DNA of 64,000 nt, taken from positions 258,265-322,264 of the forward strand of contig CAWDQN010000010.1 in the NCBI GenBank assembly GCA_963804495.1, in the 5' to 3' direction. The DNA comes from an uncultured Alphaproteobacteria bacterium (GTDB lineage Bacteria > Pseudomonadota > Alphaproteobacteria > Acetobacterales > Acetobacteraceae). Below are positions 33,334-57,578 of the stretch, piece by piece. Position 1 is the stretch's first letter. The number at the start of each line of letters is the position of its first letter. The notes beneath the pieces are model-generated. The model searched no databases, was not told the origin of the DNA, and saw only the letters and a program-made list of their open reading frames with translations. The translations under genes were made by a program, and so were the position numbers.

Positions 33334-34569
33334 TCAAGCAATTGCCCGCTTCCGCGCCAGCGCACGTTCCGCCTCGAACACATAATCCCGCGTCAGTGGC
33401 ACCGCCGCCTGATCGCGCGCCAGTTGAATCTGAAACACCATCTGCCCCTCGCGGCGGAACGTCAGCTCCGAGCCGGACAAATAGAACTCGAACATCCGAC
33501 AGAACCGCTCATCGTACAGCGCCGCGATGGTGTCGCGGTTGGCGGCGAAGCGACGGCGCCAGTGGCGCAGGGTCTCGGCGTAGTGCAGACGCAGGATTTC
33601 GATGTCGGTGGTGACCAGGCCCGCCTTCTCGATCGCTGGCAGCACTTCTGACAGCGCCGGGCAGTAGCCGCCCGGGAAGATGTATTTGGCCACCCACGGA
33701 TTGGTTCGGCAGGGCCCGGTCTGGTTGCCGATGGCGTGCAGCAAGGCCACGCCGTCGGGCGCGAGGCAGCGCTTCACCACATCGAAGAACCCACGGTAGT
33801 GAACGACGCCGACATGCTCGAACATGCCGACTGAGACGATGCGGTCGAAGCGCCGGTTCATGCTGCGGTAGTCCAGCAGCTCGAAACCGACCCGGTCGGA
33901 CAGGCCCTCGGCCGCGGCGCGCGCCTGCGCCTCGGCGAGCTGCTCGCGCGAGAGGGTGATGCCGGTGACGCGCGCGCCATAGTCGCGGGCGAGCGTCAGC
34001 GCCATGCCGCCCCAGCCGCTGCCGATGTCGAGCACCTCCAGGCCGGGCCGGTCGAGCAGCAGTTTGGCGGCAATGTGGCGCTTCTTGGCCGCCTGCGCTT
34101 CCTCCAGGGTTTCGTTGCCGGTGGGGAAATAGGCGCAGGAATATTGCCGGTCGCGGTCGAGGAACAGCGAATACAGCCGGCCGTTCAGGTCGTAATGGTG
34201 GGCGACATTGCGCTGGGCGCGCTTCGCCGGGTTGAACTGCGCCGTCCACCGGAGCAGCCAGCCGACGAATTCATGCAGGTTCATCAATTCCTGCTGCGAT
34301 CCCTCGGCGGCCCGGTTGCAGAGCATCAGGTCGATCACGTCGTAAATGCCGCAGCCGACCGGCACCAGCCCGCCCTCCATGTAGGCTTCGCCCAGGGCGA
34401 GGGCCGGGTTGAGGGCGATGCGGCGGACGGTGCGCTCGTCCTTGATGTCGATCCGGGCCTCGGGGCCGGGCGGGCCACCGTAGGTGGTCTGCCTGCCATC
34501 CGGCCATCTGATGGTCAGACGCCCGAGGACAATGAACCGGCGAAGCACACGATCCAGGACAGCGCGCAT
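33334..34569 (-). CDS. cfa: Cyclopropane-fatty-acyl-phospholipid synthase family methyltransferase
   Basis: NVAHHYDL, LDIGSGWGG, VSVGMFEHVG, KYIFPGG, HYAETL. Confidence 0.93.
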   Translation of the reverse strand: MRAVLDRVLRRFIVLGRLTIRWPDGRQTTYGGPPGPEARIDIKDERTVRRIALNPALALGEAYMEGGLVPVGCGIYDVIDLMLCNRAAEGSQQELMNLHEFVGWLLRWTAQFNPAKRAQRNVAHHYDLNGRLYSLFLDRDRQYSCAYFPTGNETLEEAQAAKKRHIAAKLLLDRPGLEVLDIGSGWGGMALTLARDYGARVTGITLSREQLAEAQARAAAEGLSDRVGFELLDYRSMNRRFDRIVSVGMFEHVGVVHYRGFFDVVKRCLAPDGVALLHAIGNQTGPCRTNPWVAKYIFPGGYCPALSEVLPAIEKAGLVTTDIEILRLHYAETLRHWRRRFAANRDTIAALYDERFCRMFEFYLSGSELTFRREGQMVFQIQLARDQAAVPLTRDYVFEAERALARKRAIA

Positions 34570-34706
34570 GGCTTCCCTCTTCCGCATCCCGCACAATGGT
34601 TGCGCAAGAAGTGGATTTGGAGCGCCTGCGATTTCAAGAGGCGGTGGCGATTAAGAAACGGCGCGACACCGCCCTGGCCCCGCGCGGAGGGGCTAGGACA
34701 GGGGGG

Positions 34707-40794: not shown

Positions 40795-41817
40795 TTACAT
40801 CCCCGCGAACAAAGGCGTGCTCAGGTAGCGCTCGGCAAAGCTAGGCGCGATCGAAACGATCAGCTTCCCGGCGTTCGCCGGATCGCGCGCCAGTGTCAGC
40901 GCGGCATGCAACGCGGCGCCTGAGGAGATGCCGATCGGCAGTCCTTCCTCGCGGGCGCTGCGCCGTGCCGCGGCGATGGCGTCGCGCTCGGACACCCGCA
41001 CCACCTCGTCCATCAGCCCCATTTCGAGCACGCTCGGCTGGAAGCCGGGGCCGATGCCCTGCACCCCGTGTGGCCCGGCCTCGTCGCCGGACAGCACCGC
41101 GCTCTCGGCCGGTTCGATCAGCACGATTCGCAAGCCAGGGCGGCGGGGCTTGAGCGCGCGGGCGATGCCGGTCAGCGTGCCGCCGGTGCCGGAGCCGCCG
41201 ACCACGATGTCCACCCGCCCGCCGGTGTCGGTCCAGATTTCCTCGGCGGTGGTGGCGGCGTGGATGTCGGGATTGGCCGGGTTGTCGAACTGGCGCGGCA
41301 TCCAGGCGCCCGGCGTGCTGGCGAGGATCGACTCGGCGCGGGCGATGGCGCCGGCCATGCCTTGCCGCGCCGGGGTGAGCTGCACGTCCGCCCCCATCAG
41401 GCGCAGCATCTTGCGCCGCTCGGCCGAGGCGCCCTCCGGCATGGTGACAATCAGCCGGTAGCCCTTGGCGGCGGCGACGAAGGCCAGCGCGATGCCGGTG
41501 TTGCCCGACGTCGGTTCAACAAGGACAGATCGGTCGGCGGCGATCAACCCTTGCGCCTCGGCGCGCTCGACCATGGCCAGGCCGATGCGGTCCTTGACCG
41601 AGCCGAGCGGGTTAAAGAACTCAAGTTTCAGAGCGACTTCGGCGACGAGCTTGTCCTCGGCCGAAATACGCGGAATGCCGACCAGCGGCGTGGCGCCGAT
41701 CGTCTCCAGGATGCTGCGGTGCATGCGGCCGCGCGCCGGGGTGGCGGCGGGGGAAACTTGTGCCGGCGAGAGGGCGGCACGGGTGACATTTCTGACCATA
41801 AGGGATGTTTTTACCAC
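40795..41817 (-). CDS. cysK: Cysteine synthase A (O-acetylserine sulfhydrylase)
   Basis: FNPLGSVKDRIG, EPTSGNTG, GSGTGGT, QGIGPG, ERYLST; exact start uncertain. Confidence 0.95.
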   Translation of the reverse strand: MVKTSLMVRNVTRAALSPAQVSPAATPARGRMHRSILETIGATPLVGIPRISAEDKLVAEVALKLEFFNPLGSVKDRIGLAMVERAEAQGLIAADRSVLVEPTSGNTGIALAFVAAAKGYRLIVTMPEGASAERRKMLRLMGADVQLTPARQGMAGAIARAESILASTPGAWMPRQFDNPANPDIHAATTAEEIWTDTGGRVDIVVGGSGTGGTLTGIARALKPRRPGLRIVLIEPAESAVLSGDEAGPHGVQGIGPGFQPSVLEMGLMDEVVRVSERDAIAAARRSAREEGLPIGISSGAALHAALTLARDPANAGKLIVSIAPSFAERYLSTPLFAGM

Positions 41818-41881
41818 AAGACGGGTGTATCACGAAGGGTAAACGTGATTTCATGTCGGCGCGCCAGAGGAGAACAACAAT

Positions 41882-42334
41882 ATGCTGATCCGACGGGACC
41901 GGGGAATGCTGGCGGTGACCGTGATGCTCAACGTCGCCTTCCATGGCGGCCGGACGGCTACGGTCAGCGCGGCGGAGATCGCCGACCGGTTGGGGCTGGC
42001 GCGAAGGGGTATGGAGCCGCTGCTGCAAGGGCTGTCGCGGGCGGGCCTGCTGGAGAGCGTGCGCGGCCCGCGCGGCGGCTACCGTCTGGGCCGGCCGCGG
42101 CGCGACATCAAAGTGTCCGATGTCGTCGCGGTGGCGGTGAGCGAGGGCGAGGTCGAACCGAGCGAAGGCCCGTCCGGCCGGCTGCAGGAGAAGGTGGTGG
42201 ATTCGCTGTGGGCGGAACTGGAGGCGGCGGCGCGCGACCGGCTGGCGTCGCTGACGCTCGACGACCTGTTGCGCCGCGCTGCCGCCGCCGGCCTGCGCCG
42301 GCCGACCAGCGAGCCGATCACCTTCGCCATCTGA
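41882..42334 (+). CDS. Rrf2 family regulator without Fe-S cysteines (CymR-like)
   Basis: EPLLQGLSRAGLLESVRGPRGGYRL winged HTH; no Cys; ends PITFAI; divergent from cysK. Confidence 0.9.
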   Translation: MLIRRDRGMLAVTVMLNVAFHGGRTATVSAAEIADRLGLARRGMEPLLQGLSRAGLLESVRGPRGGYRLGRPRRDIKVSDVVAVAVSEGEVEPSEGPSGRLQEKVVDSLWAELEAAARDRLASLTLDDLLRRAAAAGLRRPTSEPITFAI

Positions 42335-42399
42335 GCGCCGCGGAGGGCCAATGCCAATGTCTGTGGCCAGGCGTTCGGCCGTTCTGCTAGAACCACGTG

Positions 42400-43429
42400 A
42401 TGAAGATGCGAATAGCTCTGAAGGCCGCGGCGGCGGCGCTGTTGCTGGCGGTCGGAATCGGCGGCCGGCCAGCGGCGGCGCAGGACAGCTTGCTGAACGT
42501 TTCCTATGACCCGACCAGAGAGCTTTATCGCGAGCTGAACCGCGCCTTTGCAACGGTCTGGCAGAAACAGACCGGACGCAGCATCATGGTGAACGCCTCG
42601 CATGGCGGTTCGGGAGCCCAGGCGCGGGCGGTGCTGGATGGGTTGCAGGCTGACGTGGTGACGCTGGCGCTGGCCTCTGATATCGATGCGTTGGCGGCGC
42701 GGGGGCTGGTGGCGAAGGACTGGCAGGCGCGGCTGCCGGAAGGTTCCACCCCGTATACCAGTACAGATCGTCTTCCTGGTGCGCAGCGGCAATCCGAAGG
42801 CGATCCGGGACTGGCCGGACTTGGTGCGGCCTGGGGTGAAAGTGATCACCCCCAATCCGAAGACGTTGGGTGGCGCGCGCTGGAACTATCTGGCGGCACT
42901 GGGCTGGGCGCTGCGCCAGCCGGGCGGCAGCGAGGCGAGCGGCGAGGCCTATCTGCGGCGCCTGTTCGCGCGGGTGCCGGTGCTGGACACCGGCGCCCGC
43001 GGCGCCACCAACACTTTCGTGCAGCGCGGCCTGGGCGATGTACTGCTGGCCTGGGAGAACGAGGCGCTGCTGGCGCGCGACGAGCTGGGCGCGGACCGGT
43101 TCGAGATCGTCTATCCCTCGGTGACGGTGCGCGCCGACCCGCCGGTGGCGGTGGTCGATGCGGTGGTGGACAAGCGCGGCAGCCGGGCGGCGGCGGATGC
43201 GTATCTACGCTTCCTGTATACGCCGGAGGGCCAGGAGATCGCGGCGCGGCACCATTACCGCCCGCGTGACCCCGCGGTGGCGGCGCGCTATGCTGGCACC
43301 TTCCCGCCGGTGCCCACCTTTGGCATCGATTTGTTCGGTGGCTGGGCGGACGCGCAGGCGCGGCACTTCGCCGATGGCGGGGTGTTCGATCAAGTGACGG
43401 CCCCACAGGTGACGGCCCCGGCGAATTAG
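42400..43429 (+). pseudogene. sbp: Sulfate-binding periplasmic protein with apparent +1 frameshift at about 42765
   Basis: [28 protein letters not shown] then [11 protein letters not shown]...NPKT.GGARWNY in the next frame (ACC AGT ACA G ATC GTC); may be a sequencing error. Confidence 0.85.
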
Positions 43430-43439
43430 GCGGCGTCGC

Positions 43440-44270
43440 ATGACCCAATCGTTCCTTCGCCCAAACCCGCTGCCAGGGTTCGGGCCAGCCTTCGGGCTGA
43501 CCTTGGCCTGGGTGTCGCTGATCGTGCTGATCCCGCTGGCCGCCCTGGTGCTGCGGCCCTGGTCGATCGGGGTCGCCGGGGTGCTGGCCTCGGTCGGGTC
43601 GCCGCGAGTGCTAGCCGCCCTGCAGCTCAGCTTCGGTGCCTCGCTGGCGGCGGCGGCCATCAACGTGCCGCTGGGACTGCTGGTGGCCTTGGTGCTGGTG
43701 CGCGGCCGCTTTCCTGGACGTGCGCTGGCCGACGCGCTGGTGGACCTGCCCTTCGCCCTGCCGACGGCGGTGGCCGGCATCGCTCTGACCACGCTGTATG
43801 CGCCCAACGGCTGGATCGGCCGCCTGTTTGCCCCGTTCGGGGTGGTGCTGGCCTATGCCATGCCGGGGATCATGGTGGCGCTGGTGTTCGCGGGCCTGCC
43901 CTATGTGGTGCGCACCGTGCAGCCGGTGCTGATGGACCTGCCGGCCGAGCTGGAGGAGGCGGCGGCGACGCTGGGCGCCCGCCCGCACCAGATTCTGACG
44001 CGGGTGGTGCTGCCGGCGATCCTGCCCGCCCTGCTCACCGGTTTCGCCATGGCCTTCGCGCGTGCCGTGGGGGAATACGGATCGGTGATTTTCATCGCCG
44101 GCAACATGCCGGGGCTGACCGAAATCGCGCCGTTGCTGATCGTGATCCGGCTGGAACAGTTCGACTATTCCGGCGCCGCCGTGCTGGCGCTGGCGATGCT
44201 GGCGCTGTCGTTCCTGATGCTGGGGGCGGTGAATCTGCTGCAACAGCGCCTGGCACGGACAGGACGATGA
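43440..44270 (+). CDS. cysT: Sulfate ABC permease CysT
   Basis: [36 protein letters not shown]. Confidence 0.94.
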
Positions 44271-45100
44271 GCGCGCGGGTTCCTGCGGCGCCCATGGCCG
44301 CCGTGCTGGTGGCCCTGGCGGCGCTGGCCTTGCTGGTGCTGCTGCCGCTCGCCGCCCTGTTCGCCGAGGTGCTGCCGCAGGGCGCCGGGCAGGCACTTTC
44401 GGTGTTCGAGGATCCCGACTCGCTTGCGGCGATCCGCCTGACTCTCCTGGTCGCCGCCATCAGCGTGCCGGTGAACACAGTGGGCGGGCTGGCGGCGTCG
44501 TGGTGCATCGCCCGTTTTCACTTTGCCGGGCGCGGTCTGCTGTTGACCTTCATCGAACTGCCGCTGAGCGTCTCGCCGGTGATTTCCGGTCTCGTCTGGG
44601 TGCTGTTGTTCGGGGCGCAGGGCTGGCTCGCGCCGGCGGTGGAATGGGCCGGCGTGCAGGTGATCTTCGCCACGCCCGGGCTGGTGCTGGCAACGCTGTT
44701 CGTGACCTTTCCGTTCGTGGTTCGCCAGCTGGTGCCGCTCATGCAGGCGCAGGGCAGCGACGAGGAGGAGGCGGCGCTGACCCTGGGGGCGGGGCCGTGG
44801 GCGATGTTCTGGCATGTGACGCTGCCGAATGTGCGGTGGGCACTGCTGCAGGGGGTGCTGCTGCTGAATGCGCGGGCGATGGGAGAATTCGGCGCGGTAT
44901 CGGTGGTCTCGGGCCGCATCCGCGGGCAGACGTTGACCATGCCGCTGCAGATCGAGGCGCTGTACAACGATTTCCAGGCGCCGGCCGCGTTCGCCATGGC
45001 GGGGCTGCTGGCGCTGCTGGCCCTGGTTACGCTGGCGGCCAGGGCGGGGCTGGAGTGGCGCACGCGCCGGGGGACGGACTCGCCGACGGCGCCCGCATGA
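44267..45100 (+). CDS. cysW: Sulfate ABC permease CysW
   Basis: [37 protein letters not shown]. Confidence 0.94.
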
Positions 45101-46131
45101 GCCTCGCGCTGCAAGGGATTTTCAAGCAGTTTGGCGCGACGCCGGCGCTGCATGGGGTGGATCTGACGGCGGCAGAGGGCGAGTTCCTGGCCCTGCTGGG
45201 CCCGTCCGGGTCCGGCAAAACGACGCTGCTGCGTATGATCGCCGGGCTGGAGACGGCCGAATCGGGGCGGGTGCTGATCGGCGGCGCCGACATGGCCGGG
45301 GTGCCGGCGCGGTCGCGTGGGGTCGGGTTCGTGTTCCAGCACTATGCGCTGTTCCGCCACATGACGGTGGCCGACAACATTGCCTTCGGCCTGCGCGTGC
45401 GTCCGCGGGGGCAAAGGCCAAGTCGGGCGGCGATCCGGGCGCGGGTGGCCGACCTGCTGGCGCTGGTGCAGATGCCCGAGCTGGGCGGGCGGTATCCCGA
45501 CCAGTTGTCCGGCGGGCAGCGCCAGCGGGTGGCGCTGGCGCGGGCGCTGGCGATCGAGCCGCGGGTGCTGCTGCTGGACGAGCCGTTCGGGGCGCTGGAC
45601 GCGGCGGTGCGGCGCGATCTGCGCCGCTGGCTGCGCGAGCTGCACAACCGCACCGGCCTCACCACGGTGATGGTGACGCATGACCAGGCCGAGGCGCTGG
45701 AGGTGGCTGACCGGGTGGCGATCCTGCGCGCCGGCCGGGTGGAGCAGGTGGACACGCCGGCAGGGCTGTGGGCATCGCCGTGCAGCGCATTCGTGTTCCG
45801 TTTCATCGGCGAGGCGGTGGAACTGCCCTGCACGGTGCGCGACGGCCTCGCCCGGTTCGGCATCGCCGGCGTGCCGGACCAGCCCTGCGCGCTGCCGGAC
45901 GGGGCCGCTCTTGCCATGCTGCGGCCGCACGAGATCGGGCTCGCGGCGGCAGATGGGGCGGCGGATGTGCGGGTGCGCGCGGTGTTGGCGGCCGGGCCGG
46001 CGGTGCGGGTGGAGGTGCTGGCCGGCGCGCAGGCGGTCGAGGTGCTGCTGCCGCCCGGTGTGGCACCGCCCGCGGTGGGCAGCGTCTGCCGGCTTGATCT
46101 GCGGGCGGCCCGGTTTTACCCGCGCAGTTGA
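45097..46131 (+). CDS. cysA: Sulfate ABC ATP-binding protein CysA
   Basis: [37 protein letters not shown]; ATGA overlap with cysW. Confidence 0.95.
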
Positions 46132-56210: not shown

Positions 56211-56449
56211 AGCCAGCGCCGCGGTGCCGGGCCCGGATGGATCCAGGTCCGGCGCGCCCGGTGCGGCACCGCCATTGCGGGCCGCGCGCGTTCACTGCAA
56301 CGGACACGCCTCCGTCATAACGAAGGAAAGCGACCGTCGCCGCGCCAGTCCGCTTGCCGGGCCGGACGGGCATGGTCGAATGTGCGCTCATCGGGCCGAG
56401 TAACGGCGAGGGTGATGCGATGAGCGACGGACTCCTGCCTCCCACCGCT

Positions 56450-56659
56450 CCGGGCGATGTGGCGCCGTTCTGGCTGGTGCACTGCCTGCAACGGGTGCCG
56501 GTCCGGGCGGGGCGGCATTGCGCCCAGCCGAACCTGCGCCGCTTCGGGATGGAGGGGGCGGTGCGGGCCTCTCTTGCGCTCTTTCACACCCATGCCGATA
56601 TCGATGGTCTTGTCGCTGCCTTGTTGCGGGTGCTTTTGGCTCGGCCGGCGACGGGGTGA
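56450..56659 (+). pseudogene. C-terminal remnant of a SufS-type cysteine desulfurase
   Basis: VRAGRHCAQPNLRRFGMEGAVRASLALFHTHADIDGLVAAL matches the SufS C-terminus (RAGHHCA); the rest of the gene is missing. Confidence 0.75.
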
Positions 56660-56690
56660 CGCGCCAGATTCCGCGCCAGATTCCGCGCCA
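56659..56690 (+). repeat. 12-bp tandem repeat upstream of cysE
   Basis: GCGCCAGATTCC x2 plus partial GCGCCAGA. Confidence 0.8.
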
Positions 56691-56708
56691 GACAAGGGGA
56701 GACGCGAC

Positions 56709-57578
56709 ATGCCGCGACCGCAACTGGGCCATCTGACCGTCATCTCGCGCGATGACGACCAGGTGCGCCAGTTTACCGATGCGATGTGGGCACGGCTGCG
56801 GCGCGAGGCCGAAGACGCCTATGAGCGTGCGCCCATGCTCGCACCACTGTTTCTCGATTCCATCATCAACCAGCCCAGTTTCGAATCGGCGGTGTTCCAC
56901 CGGGTGGGCGCAAGGCTGAAGAACGACGTGATCTCGCTGCCGCTGATCATCCGCGCCTTCCACCAGGCGCTGGAAGCGGAGCCGGACATTTCCATGGCGC
57001 TGCGCGCCGACATCACCGCGGTCTATGAGCGCGACCCGGCCTGCGAGCGGTTCATCGAGCCCTTTTTGTATTTCAAGGGGTTCCATGCCATCCAGGCGCA
57101 CCGGCTGACGCATTGGCTGTGGAACAGCGGTAACCGCGATTTTGCCCTGTATTTACAAAGCCGCTCCTCGGAAGTGTTTCAAACCGACATCCATCCGGCG
57201 GCGCGGCTTGGCCGCGGGCTGTTCCTCGACCATGCCACGGGACTGGTGGTGGGCGAGACGGCGGTGATCGAGGACGATGTGTCGATGCTGCAGGACGTGA
57301 CCCTGGGCGGCTCCGGCAAGGAAACCGGCGACCGCCACCCGAAAGTGCGCCGGGGTGCGATGATCGGCGCCGGGGCGAAGGTGCTCGGCAATCTCGAGGT
57401 GGGCGAGAATGCCCGCATCGCGGCGGGCTCGGTGGTGCTGCGGCCGGTGCCCGCGCATACCACGGTCGCCGGGGTGCCGGCGCGGGTGGTGCGCACCGCC
57501 ACCCCCGACGAGCCCTCGCGCACGATGGACCAGATCCTCAGCGATCTGTCCTATGAGGCATTCGCCTACACGATCTGA
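56709..57578 (+). CDS. cysE: Serine O-acetyltransferase
   Basis: RDPAC, KGFHAIQAHR, DIHPAA, LDHATG, RHPK, AGSVV hexapeptide repeats; ends FAYTI. Confidence 0.95.
   Translation: MPRPQLGHLTVISRDDDQVRQFTDAMWARLRREAEDAYERAPMLAPLFLDSIINQPSFESAVFHRVGARLKNDVISLPLIIRAFHQALEAEPDISMALRADITAVYERDPACERFIEPFLYFKGFHAIQAHRLTHWLWNSGNRDFALYLQSRSSEVFQTDIHPAARLGRGLFLDHATGLVVGETAVIEDDVSMLQDVTLGGSGKETGDRHPKVRRGAMIGAGAKVLGNLEVGENARIAAGSVVLRPVPAHTTVAGVPARVVRTATPDEPSRTMDQILSDLSYEAFAYTI

Follow-up and report, generated by a model that had tools for sequence, protein, structure and literature searches.

A conserved CysE-like tail on a cysK-linked Rrf2 protein suggests a CymR-like sulfur switch in Alphaproteobacteria

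Introduction

A regulatory gene that lies beside cysK, and whose product ends in a peptide resembling the C-terminus of serine acetyltransferase, raises the question of whether that product could be a partner of CysK and whether CysK could be the sensor through which it reads sulfur status. The question arises from one alphaproteobacterial locus, contained in a stretch of 64,000 nucleotides (referred to below as the window) that also encodes a CysE.

In the CysE–CysK cysteine synthase complex, the carboxylate of the C-terminal isoleucine of CysE rests on the substrate loop of CysK, with the aromatic residue at position −2 held in a hydrophobic cleft. The toxin CdiA-CT(UPEC536) reportedly mimics the CysE tail, docks into CysK and competes with CysE. 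The peptide-binding site of CysK is being explored as a target for antibacterial adjuvants. To our knowledge, experimental proof of the CysK–CymR mechanism is limited to Bacillus and Staphylococcus, the cymR and cysK genes of Firmicutes are unlinked, and sulfur and cysteine sensing in Alphaproteobacteria is poorly defined. A literature search returned no paper on a CymR-like regulator in Alphaproteobacteria, an absence that is no proof.

In Staphylococcus aureus, crystal structures place the C-terminal decapeptides of both CysE (...DDYII) and CymR (...GYMFYI) in the CysK active site, where the carboxylate of the terminal isoleucine hydrogen-bonds to the substrate loop and the −2 aromatic residue occupies a hydrophobic channel that is conserved; exchanging one or the other of these residues for alanine abolishes binding to CysK, and exchanges elsewhere only weaken it (bioRxiv 10.1101/2024.09.19.614015). 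The native CysE tail of Mycobacterium tuberculosis, DFSI, has been crystallised in CysK1 (2Q3C; PMC9547175). From the letters of the window alone, an initial annotation had proposed a CymR-like CysK/Rrf2 switch for the present locus. As set out below, that proposal is supported by two conserved tail residues (the terminal isoleucine and the aromatic one at −2), by the proximity of the gene to cysK across the class and by the tendency of the two genes to be lost together.

Results and Discussion

An Rrf2-family protein is encoded opposite cysK

The rrf2 open reading frame occupies positions 41882..42334 of the plus strand, stop codon included, and its translation is a winged-helix regulator of the Rrf2 family, 150 residues long and free of cysteine, with the C-terminus ...RRPTSEPITFAI, that is, PITFAI. 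On the minus strand, at 40795..41724, lies cysK, encoding O-acetylserine sulfhydrylase A (TIGR01139, 396.5 bits for a cut-off of 350.95), the proposed partner and regulated target. The two genes are thus divergent, as the initial annotation had stated, and translation confirmed the endings it had read: PITFAI for the regulator and FAYTI for the CysE of the window.

We sought to place the protein within the Rrf2 superfamily, whose profiles it exceeded (PF02082, 87 bits, cut-off 30; TIGR00738, 82.8 bits, cut-off 73.3). The CymR equivalog NF047409 was missed both by this protein (61.1 bits for a cut-off of 195) and by ten diverse tail-bearing relatives, the best of which scored 114.7 bits. The IscR models were missed as well (TIGR02010, 65.2 bits, cut-off 207.55; PRK10857, 57.9 bits, cut-off 275), and the scores obtained with the RirA, NsrR and SUF regulator profiles were lower still than those for IscR. 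Among PDB sequences, the protein scored 46 bits with CymR (2y75) versus 66 bits with IscR (4cic). An alignment was made of 72 sequences picked by homology, and not by tail; the AlphaFold2 model built from this alignment (mean pLDDT 88, pTM 0.82) had the Rrf2 fold, with a winged helix-turn-helix and a dimerisation helix. All top Foldseek matches of the model were Rrf2 structures, IscR (4cic, 4hf0) and CymR (2y75, 3t8r) being equally close. In the same alignment, E45 and the wing residues RGPRGGY were invariant.

The absence of cysteine, on which the initial annotation had remarked, is true of this protein and of its genus, with 113 of the 120 close homologues free of it, but it is not a property of the wider family, in which many orthologues have one to three cysteines, none of them conserved and none forming part of an Fe–S ligand set. 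No conserved cysteine column and no Cys/His ligand set was found among the orthologues or in the 72-sequence alignment; with no conserved cysteine, Fe–S sensing is not to be expected. An IscR-like identity was considered and rejected on two grounds, namely that all cluster ligands are missing and that the equivalog scores lie below their cut-offs. The same genome encodes separate Rrf2 paralogues that do bear cysteines and that end in ...SVLERA and ...QIPLAE.

The best named match of the protein comes from Rhodovastum (80% identity), and its close homologues point to the Acetobacteraceae. In databases, members of the family are called simply "Rrf2 family" or, by transfer, iron-sulfur cluster assembly regulator, and NCBIfam holds no model specific to the cysK-linked, tail-bearing Rrf2 clade.

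The C-terminal tail is predicted to be free and its end is conserved

Residues 136–150 (AGLRRPTSEPITFAI; 42287..42331, plus strand) constitute the proposed plug of the CysK active site, anchored by F148 and I150. In the model, the last helix spans residues 126–135 and everything beyond it is coil, with a mean pLDDT of about 64 over the last ten residues; residues 136–150 are accordingly modelled as a flexible, free tail.

Conservation of the terminal isoleucine among cysK-linked Rrf2 orthologues had been set beforehand as a check on the initial annotation, and it was found in every set of sequences. The residue is present in all 120 close homologues listed (PITFAI, PISFAI and similar endings), in all 70 orthologues extracted from the same order (37–100% identity) and in all 79 full-length relatives from Azospirillum, Magnetospirillum, Stellaceae, Inquilinus, Kiloniella and others, while an [F/Y]-x-I ending closes the protein at 29 of 29 loci, one from each of 29 alphaproteobacterial families. 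Throughout these four sets, every full-length relative has phenylalanine or tyrosine at −2. In the 70 same-order orthologues, the −2 residue is phenylalanine, except for a tryptophan (W-x-I) in one partial, more distant relative. The tail stays invariant down to about 30% identity.

The alignment columns allowed the tail to be examined position by position. I150 is present in 72 of the 72 sequences, position 148 is phenylalanine in 69 and tyrosine in three, and position 146 is isoleucine or leucine. Across these sequences, positions 142–143 are among the most variable of the protein, with about 3 bits of entropy, and the stretch between G137 and the C-terminus is free of gaps. Such columns are what would be expected of a short docking peptide on a spacer fixed in length and free in sequence, and to judge from them the tail is under strong selection. 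The two positions conserved in the Rrf2 tail are exactly the two found essential in the S. aureus peptide scan.

A census of open reading frames was used to ask how often such an ending occurs in this genome (4.15 Mb, 16 contigs). The count is crude, being limited to 2,421 open reading frames with high third-position GC; 49 of them end in isoleucine and only four in [FYW]-x-Ile, namely the Rrf2 gene, two copies of cysE and a gene for an ATP-grasp-like protein. By this count, the tail is more than a chance ending. The fourth protein, an ATP-grasp ligase-like protein by its sequence (contig C9, 191030-192172, minus strand), ends in ...HERWVI and may be either a client of CysK or a coincidence.

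To look beyond the order, the best 150 representatives at 50% identity were taken from a library of 1.8 billion proteins; 85 of them end in isoleucine, mostly as D-F/Y-x-I. A phylogeny of 121 Rrf2 representatives, from which the tail had been removed beforehand, was built to see if the tail-bearing proteins and CymR fall into a single clade; it comprised 143 columns and left 64 of 118 inner branches unresolved. On this tree, only the clustering of the tail label was significant, none of 500 shuffles reaching it. Many of the apparently tail-less neighbours in the tree resemble truncated or frameshifted metagenomic gene calls. Because its similarity to Firmicute CymR does not exceed that to IscR, the protein could have acquired its tail by convergence with CymR, and details may differ.

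rrf2 and cysK form a module across the class

The linkage to cysK was examined at three scales. Within the order, 151 genomes were searched, full-length orthologues were found in about 120 and 70 loci were extracted. A divergent cysK lies within 5 kb at 64 of the 70, mostly 110–340 bp away; the other six orthologues are not beside cysK and yet keep the tail. A scan of species-representative genomes, with a 10-sequence alignment as the query, yielded 80 loci from Azospirillum, Magnetospirillum, Paramagnetospirillum, Stellaceae, Inquilinus, Kiloniella, Geminicoccaceae, Caenispirillum and other taxa. At 72 of these 80, cysK is directly downstream on the same strand, and 79 of the encoded proteins end in D-F/Y-x-I (30 in DFTI, 29 in DFSI), the sole exception being a gene cut by a contig end. 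Finally, in a class sample of 201 genomes, roughly one per family, the cysK-linked Rrf2 family is present in 93, and at 28 of the 29 loci from 29 families cysK adjoins rrf2. At 27 of these 28 linked loci, cysK comes after rrf2 and shares its strand; only one locus, in an Acetobacteraceae genome, is divergent.

Since the same-strand layout is found across the class and the divergent one only in Acetobacteraceae, the divergent layout is, as gene order indicates, a derived, Acetobacteraceae-specific rearrangement of a class-wide rrf2–cysK module. The linkage outlived this rearrangement and is kept in two gene arrangements. The CysK copies encoded beside the regulator are 61–83% identical to that of the window.

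Genomes lacking the regulator were also informative. The same-order search left 29 genomes without an orthologue match, of which one proved to be a contig-end truncation and 28 are truly without the regulator. In 25 of these 28, no CysK at least 59% identical to that of the window was found; the best matches, at 38–52% identity, point to other types of O-acetylserine sulfhydrylase. The remaining three keep this CysK type. Within the order, the regulator and this type of CysK thus appear mostly to have been lost together, in counts that are not phylogenetically independent.

Two further arrangements were noted. At most Rhodospirillales-type loci, rrf2 starts about 10–60 nt after a gene whose product ends in ...RG.GGFGSTG, like the C-terminal motif of dUTPase; the closeness of the two genes suggests a dut–rrf2–cysK transcription unit, the upstream gene apparently being dut. 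In one genus (L056:2468-5435 and L067:5001-8010), the genes form a cluster rrf2–cysK'–cysK–cysE, in which cysK' is a second, CysK-like gene about 40% identical.

A candidate operator lies between the two genes

The intergenic region between cysK and rrf2 contains a perfect inverted repeat, ATCACG-N9-CGTGAT, at 41829..41849, 32 nt before the rrf2 ATG, which we take as the candidate operator. In the 64-kb window this is the only match at ≤1 mismatch (0.19 expected), and in the whole genome it is the best site for TATCACG-N9-CGTGATA (13 of 14 positions). Orthologous intergenic regions hold related repeats with the consensus ATAnCACc-N9-cGTGGATa: CAC-N11-GTG occurs in 21 of 58 distinct regions, versus 1.6 ± 1.3 in shuffled ones (maximum 6). 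This palindrome of the common promoter region is conserved between genera and, the winged-helix residues being invariant as well, DNA binding appears therefore to be under selection. In the upstream regions of the Rhodospirillales-type rrf2–cysK loci, inspection by eye revealed no shared palindrome.

A search of the whole genome with TATCACG-N(8-10)-CGTGATA gave no second strong site; sites with 11–12 matches were equally frequent for all three spacers and are therefore background. Given this lack of a second strong operator, the regulon may be local, that is, it may comprise only cysK and rrf2.

CysK and CysE of the same genome

The closest solved structures to the CysK of the window include M. 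tuberculosis CysK1 (2q3b/2q3c/2q3d, 370 bits). In an alignment with that protein, EPTSGNTGIALA, which contains the TSGNT loop, and RQFDNPANP, which contains the Q-F motif, are conserved. Further pieces of cysK were found on contig C12: a copy of its 3' half only (34207-34701; residues 145-309, 97% identical) and a paralogue, 59–64% identical, that reads in two frames (68527-69451). These pieces may be remnants of a second cysK–rrf2 pair, because several genomes of the same genus (G151, G153 and G159) carry two pairs.

The cysE gene of the window, for serine acetyltransferase, probably spans 56709..57578 on the plus strand; its product, the proposed competitor for CysK, ends in ...YEAFAYTI. A second CysE, encoded on another contig of the genome, ends in ...AFSYTI, and its start matches the likely start MPRPQLGH at 56709. 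The cysE frame remains open for 95 codons further upstream (56424-56708).

We then compared the endings of CysE and of the regulator. CysE proteins of the same genus end in F[AST]YTI, FAWTI or SYSI, and alphaproteobacterial CysE outside the genus in DFAI, DYMI or DFQI; the other CysE homologues sampled are without a terminal isoleucine. In the regulator, the −3 residue is serine or threonine in this genus versus aspartate in most of the class. The D-F/Y-x-I ending shared by CysE and the Rrf2 tails of most of the class is consistent with a regulator that mimics the CysE tail. DFSI, the tetrapeptide of the M. tuberculosis CysE crystallised in CysK1, is itself the ending of 29 of the 80 alphaproteobacterial Rrf2 relatives.

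A proposed CysK-dependent switch and its alternatives

On this comparative evidence, we propose that the rrf2 product is a CymR-like, CysK-dependent repressor for which CysK is the sensor and O-acetylserine (OAS) the releasing signal; we would give this reading a probability of roughly 0.7. Its physical binding to CysK, its release by OAS, repression as the direction of control and competition by CysE are the elements that we infer.

In the proposed model, an Rrf2 dimer would bind the inverted repeat at 41829-41849 between cysK and rrf2, and its two free tails (residues 136–150) would enter CysK active sites, where Ile150 would rest its carboxylate on the TSGNT loop that binds substrate and F148 would occupy the hydrophobic channel beside it. 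With sulfur and cysteine plentiful, OAS would be low and CysK active sites free, a CysK–Rrf2 complex would form, and this complex would stabilise repression of cysK and rrf2 (here perhaps together with sbp-cysTWA). When sulfide becomes limiting, OAS would accumulate and displace the tail, the complex would fall apart and the genes would be derepressed. CysE, which has a similar tail (YTI), would compete for the same CysK site.

The tail could also dock into CysK with an output that is chiefly enzymatic, Rrf2 being a stoichiometric inhibitor or buffer of CysK, or a competitor of the CysE–CysK complex, and its DNA binding a constitutive, CysK-independent autoregulation. Tails derived from CymR and CysE do inhibit S. 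aureus CysK (IC50 180 nM), a single operon expresses both rrf2 and cysK in most of the class, so that their amounts would match, and only one strong operator was found in the genome. A transcription factor, however, is normally far rarer than CysK, too scarce to titrate it; RGPRGGY and E45 of the winged helix do not vary and the palindrome is conserved; and the role published for the complex, in B. subtilis as in S. aureus, is transcriptional. We therefore consider an enzymatic output unlikely.

Alternatively, the regulator could govern cysK by binding a small signal molecule itself (OAS, N-acetylserine, sulfide or persulfide), in which case F-x-I would serve some other end, for instance to pack the dimer, to mark the protein for degradation or to touch RNA polymerase. 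Direct sensing would be in keeping with the habit of most Rrf2 regulators, which sense their own signal. The similarity of the protein to CymR is, moreover, no higher than to IscR, and six orthologues keep the tail away from cysK. Against direct sensing stand the lack of a conserved Cys or His ligand set, a tail predicted to be free, at lower confidence, and not packed, and the fact that its conserved positions are exactly the two essential for CysK docking. Many members end in DFSI, the very peptide crystallised in CysK1, and the regulator and this CysK type were lost together, all of which leaves direct sensing little likelihood. That the protein is an ordinary, apo-IscR-like housekeeping paralogue, whose tail and cysK neighbourhood are functionless accidents, is very improbable: IscR-type proteins do score best in PDB and NCBIfam after the superfamily model, but all cluster ligands are missing, the genome has its own cysteine-bearing Rrf2 paralogues, and neither a tail invariant to about 30% identity nor cysK linkage in 28 of 29 families fits neutrality.

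Comparison with known CysK clients and Rrf2 proteins

The proposed switch resembles that of CymR–CysK in B. subtilis and S. aureus (NF047409; PDB 2y75, 3t8r/3t8t) in several respects. Both regulators are Rrf2 winged-helix dimers without an Fe–S cluster, and both have a free C-terminal tail ending in aromatic-x-Ile (...YMFYI in CymR, ...ITFAI here); cysK would be both partner and target, and OAS the expected releasing signal. The differences are equally clear. The alphaproteobacterial protein comes from another phylum, falls short of the CymR equivalog and resembles CymR no more than it resembles IscR; its gene is physically coupled to cysK, in an operon or divergently; its tail is CysE-like (D/S/T-F-x-I), without the Tyr-Met "plug" found in S. 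aureus CymR; it has no redox-sensing cysteine; and its regulon is apparently local, whereas that of CymR is global. The CymR–CysK principle is known, and what appears to be new is a distinct Rrf2 subfamily in another phylum, coupled to cysK, with a CysE-like tail and an apparently local regulon.

With the CysE–CysK complex of H. influenzae, Salmonella and M. tuberculosis, the alphaproteobacterial pair would share the docking principle, but here the tail belongs to a transcription factor, where CysE is the enzyme one step earlier in the pathway. CdiA-CT(UPEC536) offers a precedent only, as an unrelated protein with CysE-tail mimicry; it is a toxin tRNase delivered between cells, without a regulatory role. 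IscR in its apo form and other Rrf2 proteins (PDB 4cic, 4hf0, 4chu) are the best matches in sequence and fold, with an equivalent of E45 and a conserved RGPRGGY wing, but the three-Cys and His cluster ligands of IscR are missing in the alphaproteobacterial protein, and IscR is without a comparable conserved F-x-I C-terminus.

About half of the families of Alphaproteobacteria thus probably read their sulfur status in the way that Bacillus and Staphylococcus do. A broader claim, which we regard as possible though somewhat doubtful, is that the cysK-linked Rrf2 is the primary sulfur and cysteine sensor in roughly half of the families, with CysK as the actual OAS receptor and a three-way competition between regulator, CysE and CysK in which one active site would set enzyme activity, complex formation and transcription. 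If true, the tail would either be of ancient origin and common to the CymR-like proteins of Firmicutes, cyanobacteria and other groups, or have evolved more than once in imitation of the CysE tail; in both cases, the use of CysK as a signalling hub would be a principle general to bacteria and not a Firmicute curiosity. With the proposed switch, CysE-tail mimicry would be used for gene regulation well outside the Firmicutes, and a widespread class of natural ligands would be added to those proposed for CysK. The class-wide regulator is a concrete and easily tested candidate in Azospirillum, Magnetospirillum and acetic acid bacteria.

The sulfate transporter genes downstream of rrf2

The initial annotation had also placed rrf2 at the head of an sbp–cysTWA operon. 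Downstream of rrf2, on the plus strand, lie sbp for a sulfate-binding protein (42397..43429) and the sulfate ABC transporter genes cysT (43440..44270), cysW (44267..45100) and cysA (45097..46131), the start of cysW overlapping the stop of cysT and that of cysA the stop of cysW. The gap between rrf2 and sbp is 62 nt and holds no terminator-like site, so that cysTWA are possibly co-transcribed with rrf2. The arrangement is confined to some genomes of the same genus, and sbp itself is frameshifted in the present one.

The sbp gene appears as two overlapping open reading frames (42397..43269 and 42686..43429) split by a +1 frameshift near 42737. The frameshift consists of one extra base, CCG TAT ACC AGT ACA G ATC GTC, where the intact paralogue reads PYVSTIVF; that second, intact sbp lies on contig C15. 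Since the two halves share one frame in genomes of the same genus, the frameshift seems to be either a private pseudogene or an assembly error. Besides the present genome, only three loci, all from the genus, have the order rrf2–sbp–cysTWA.
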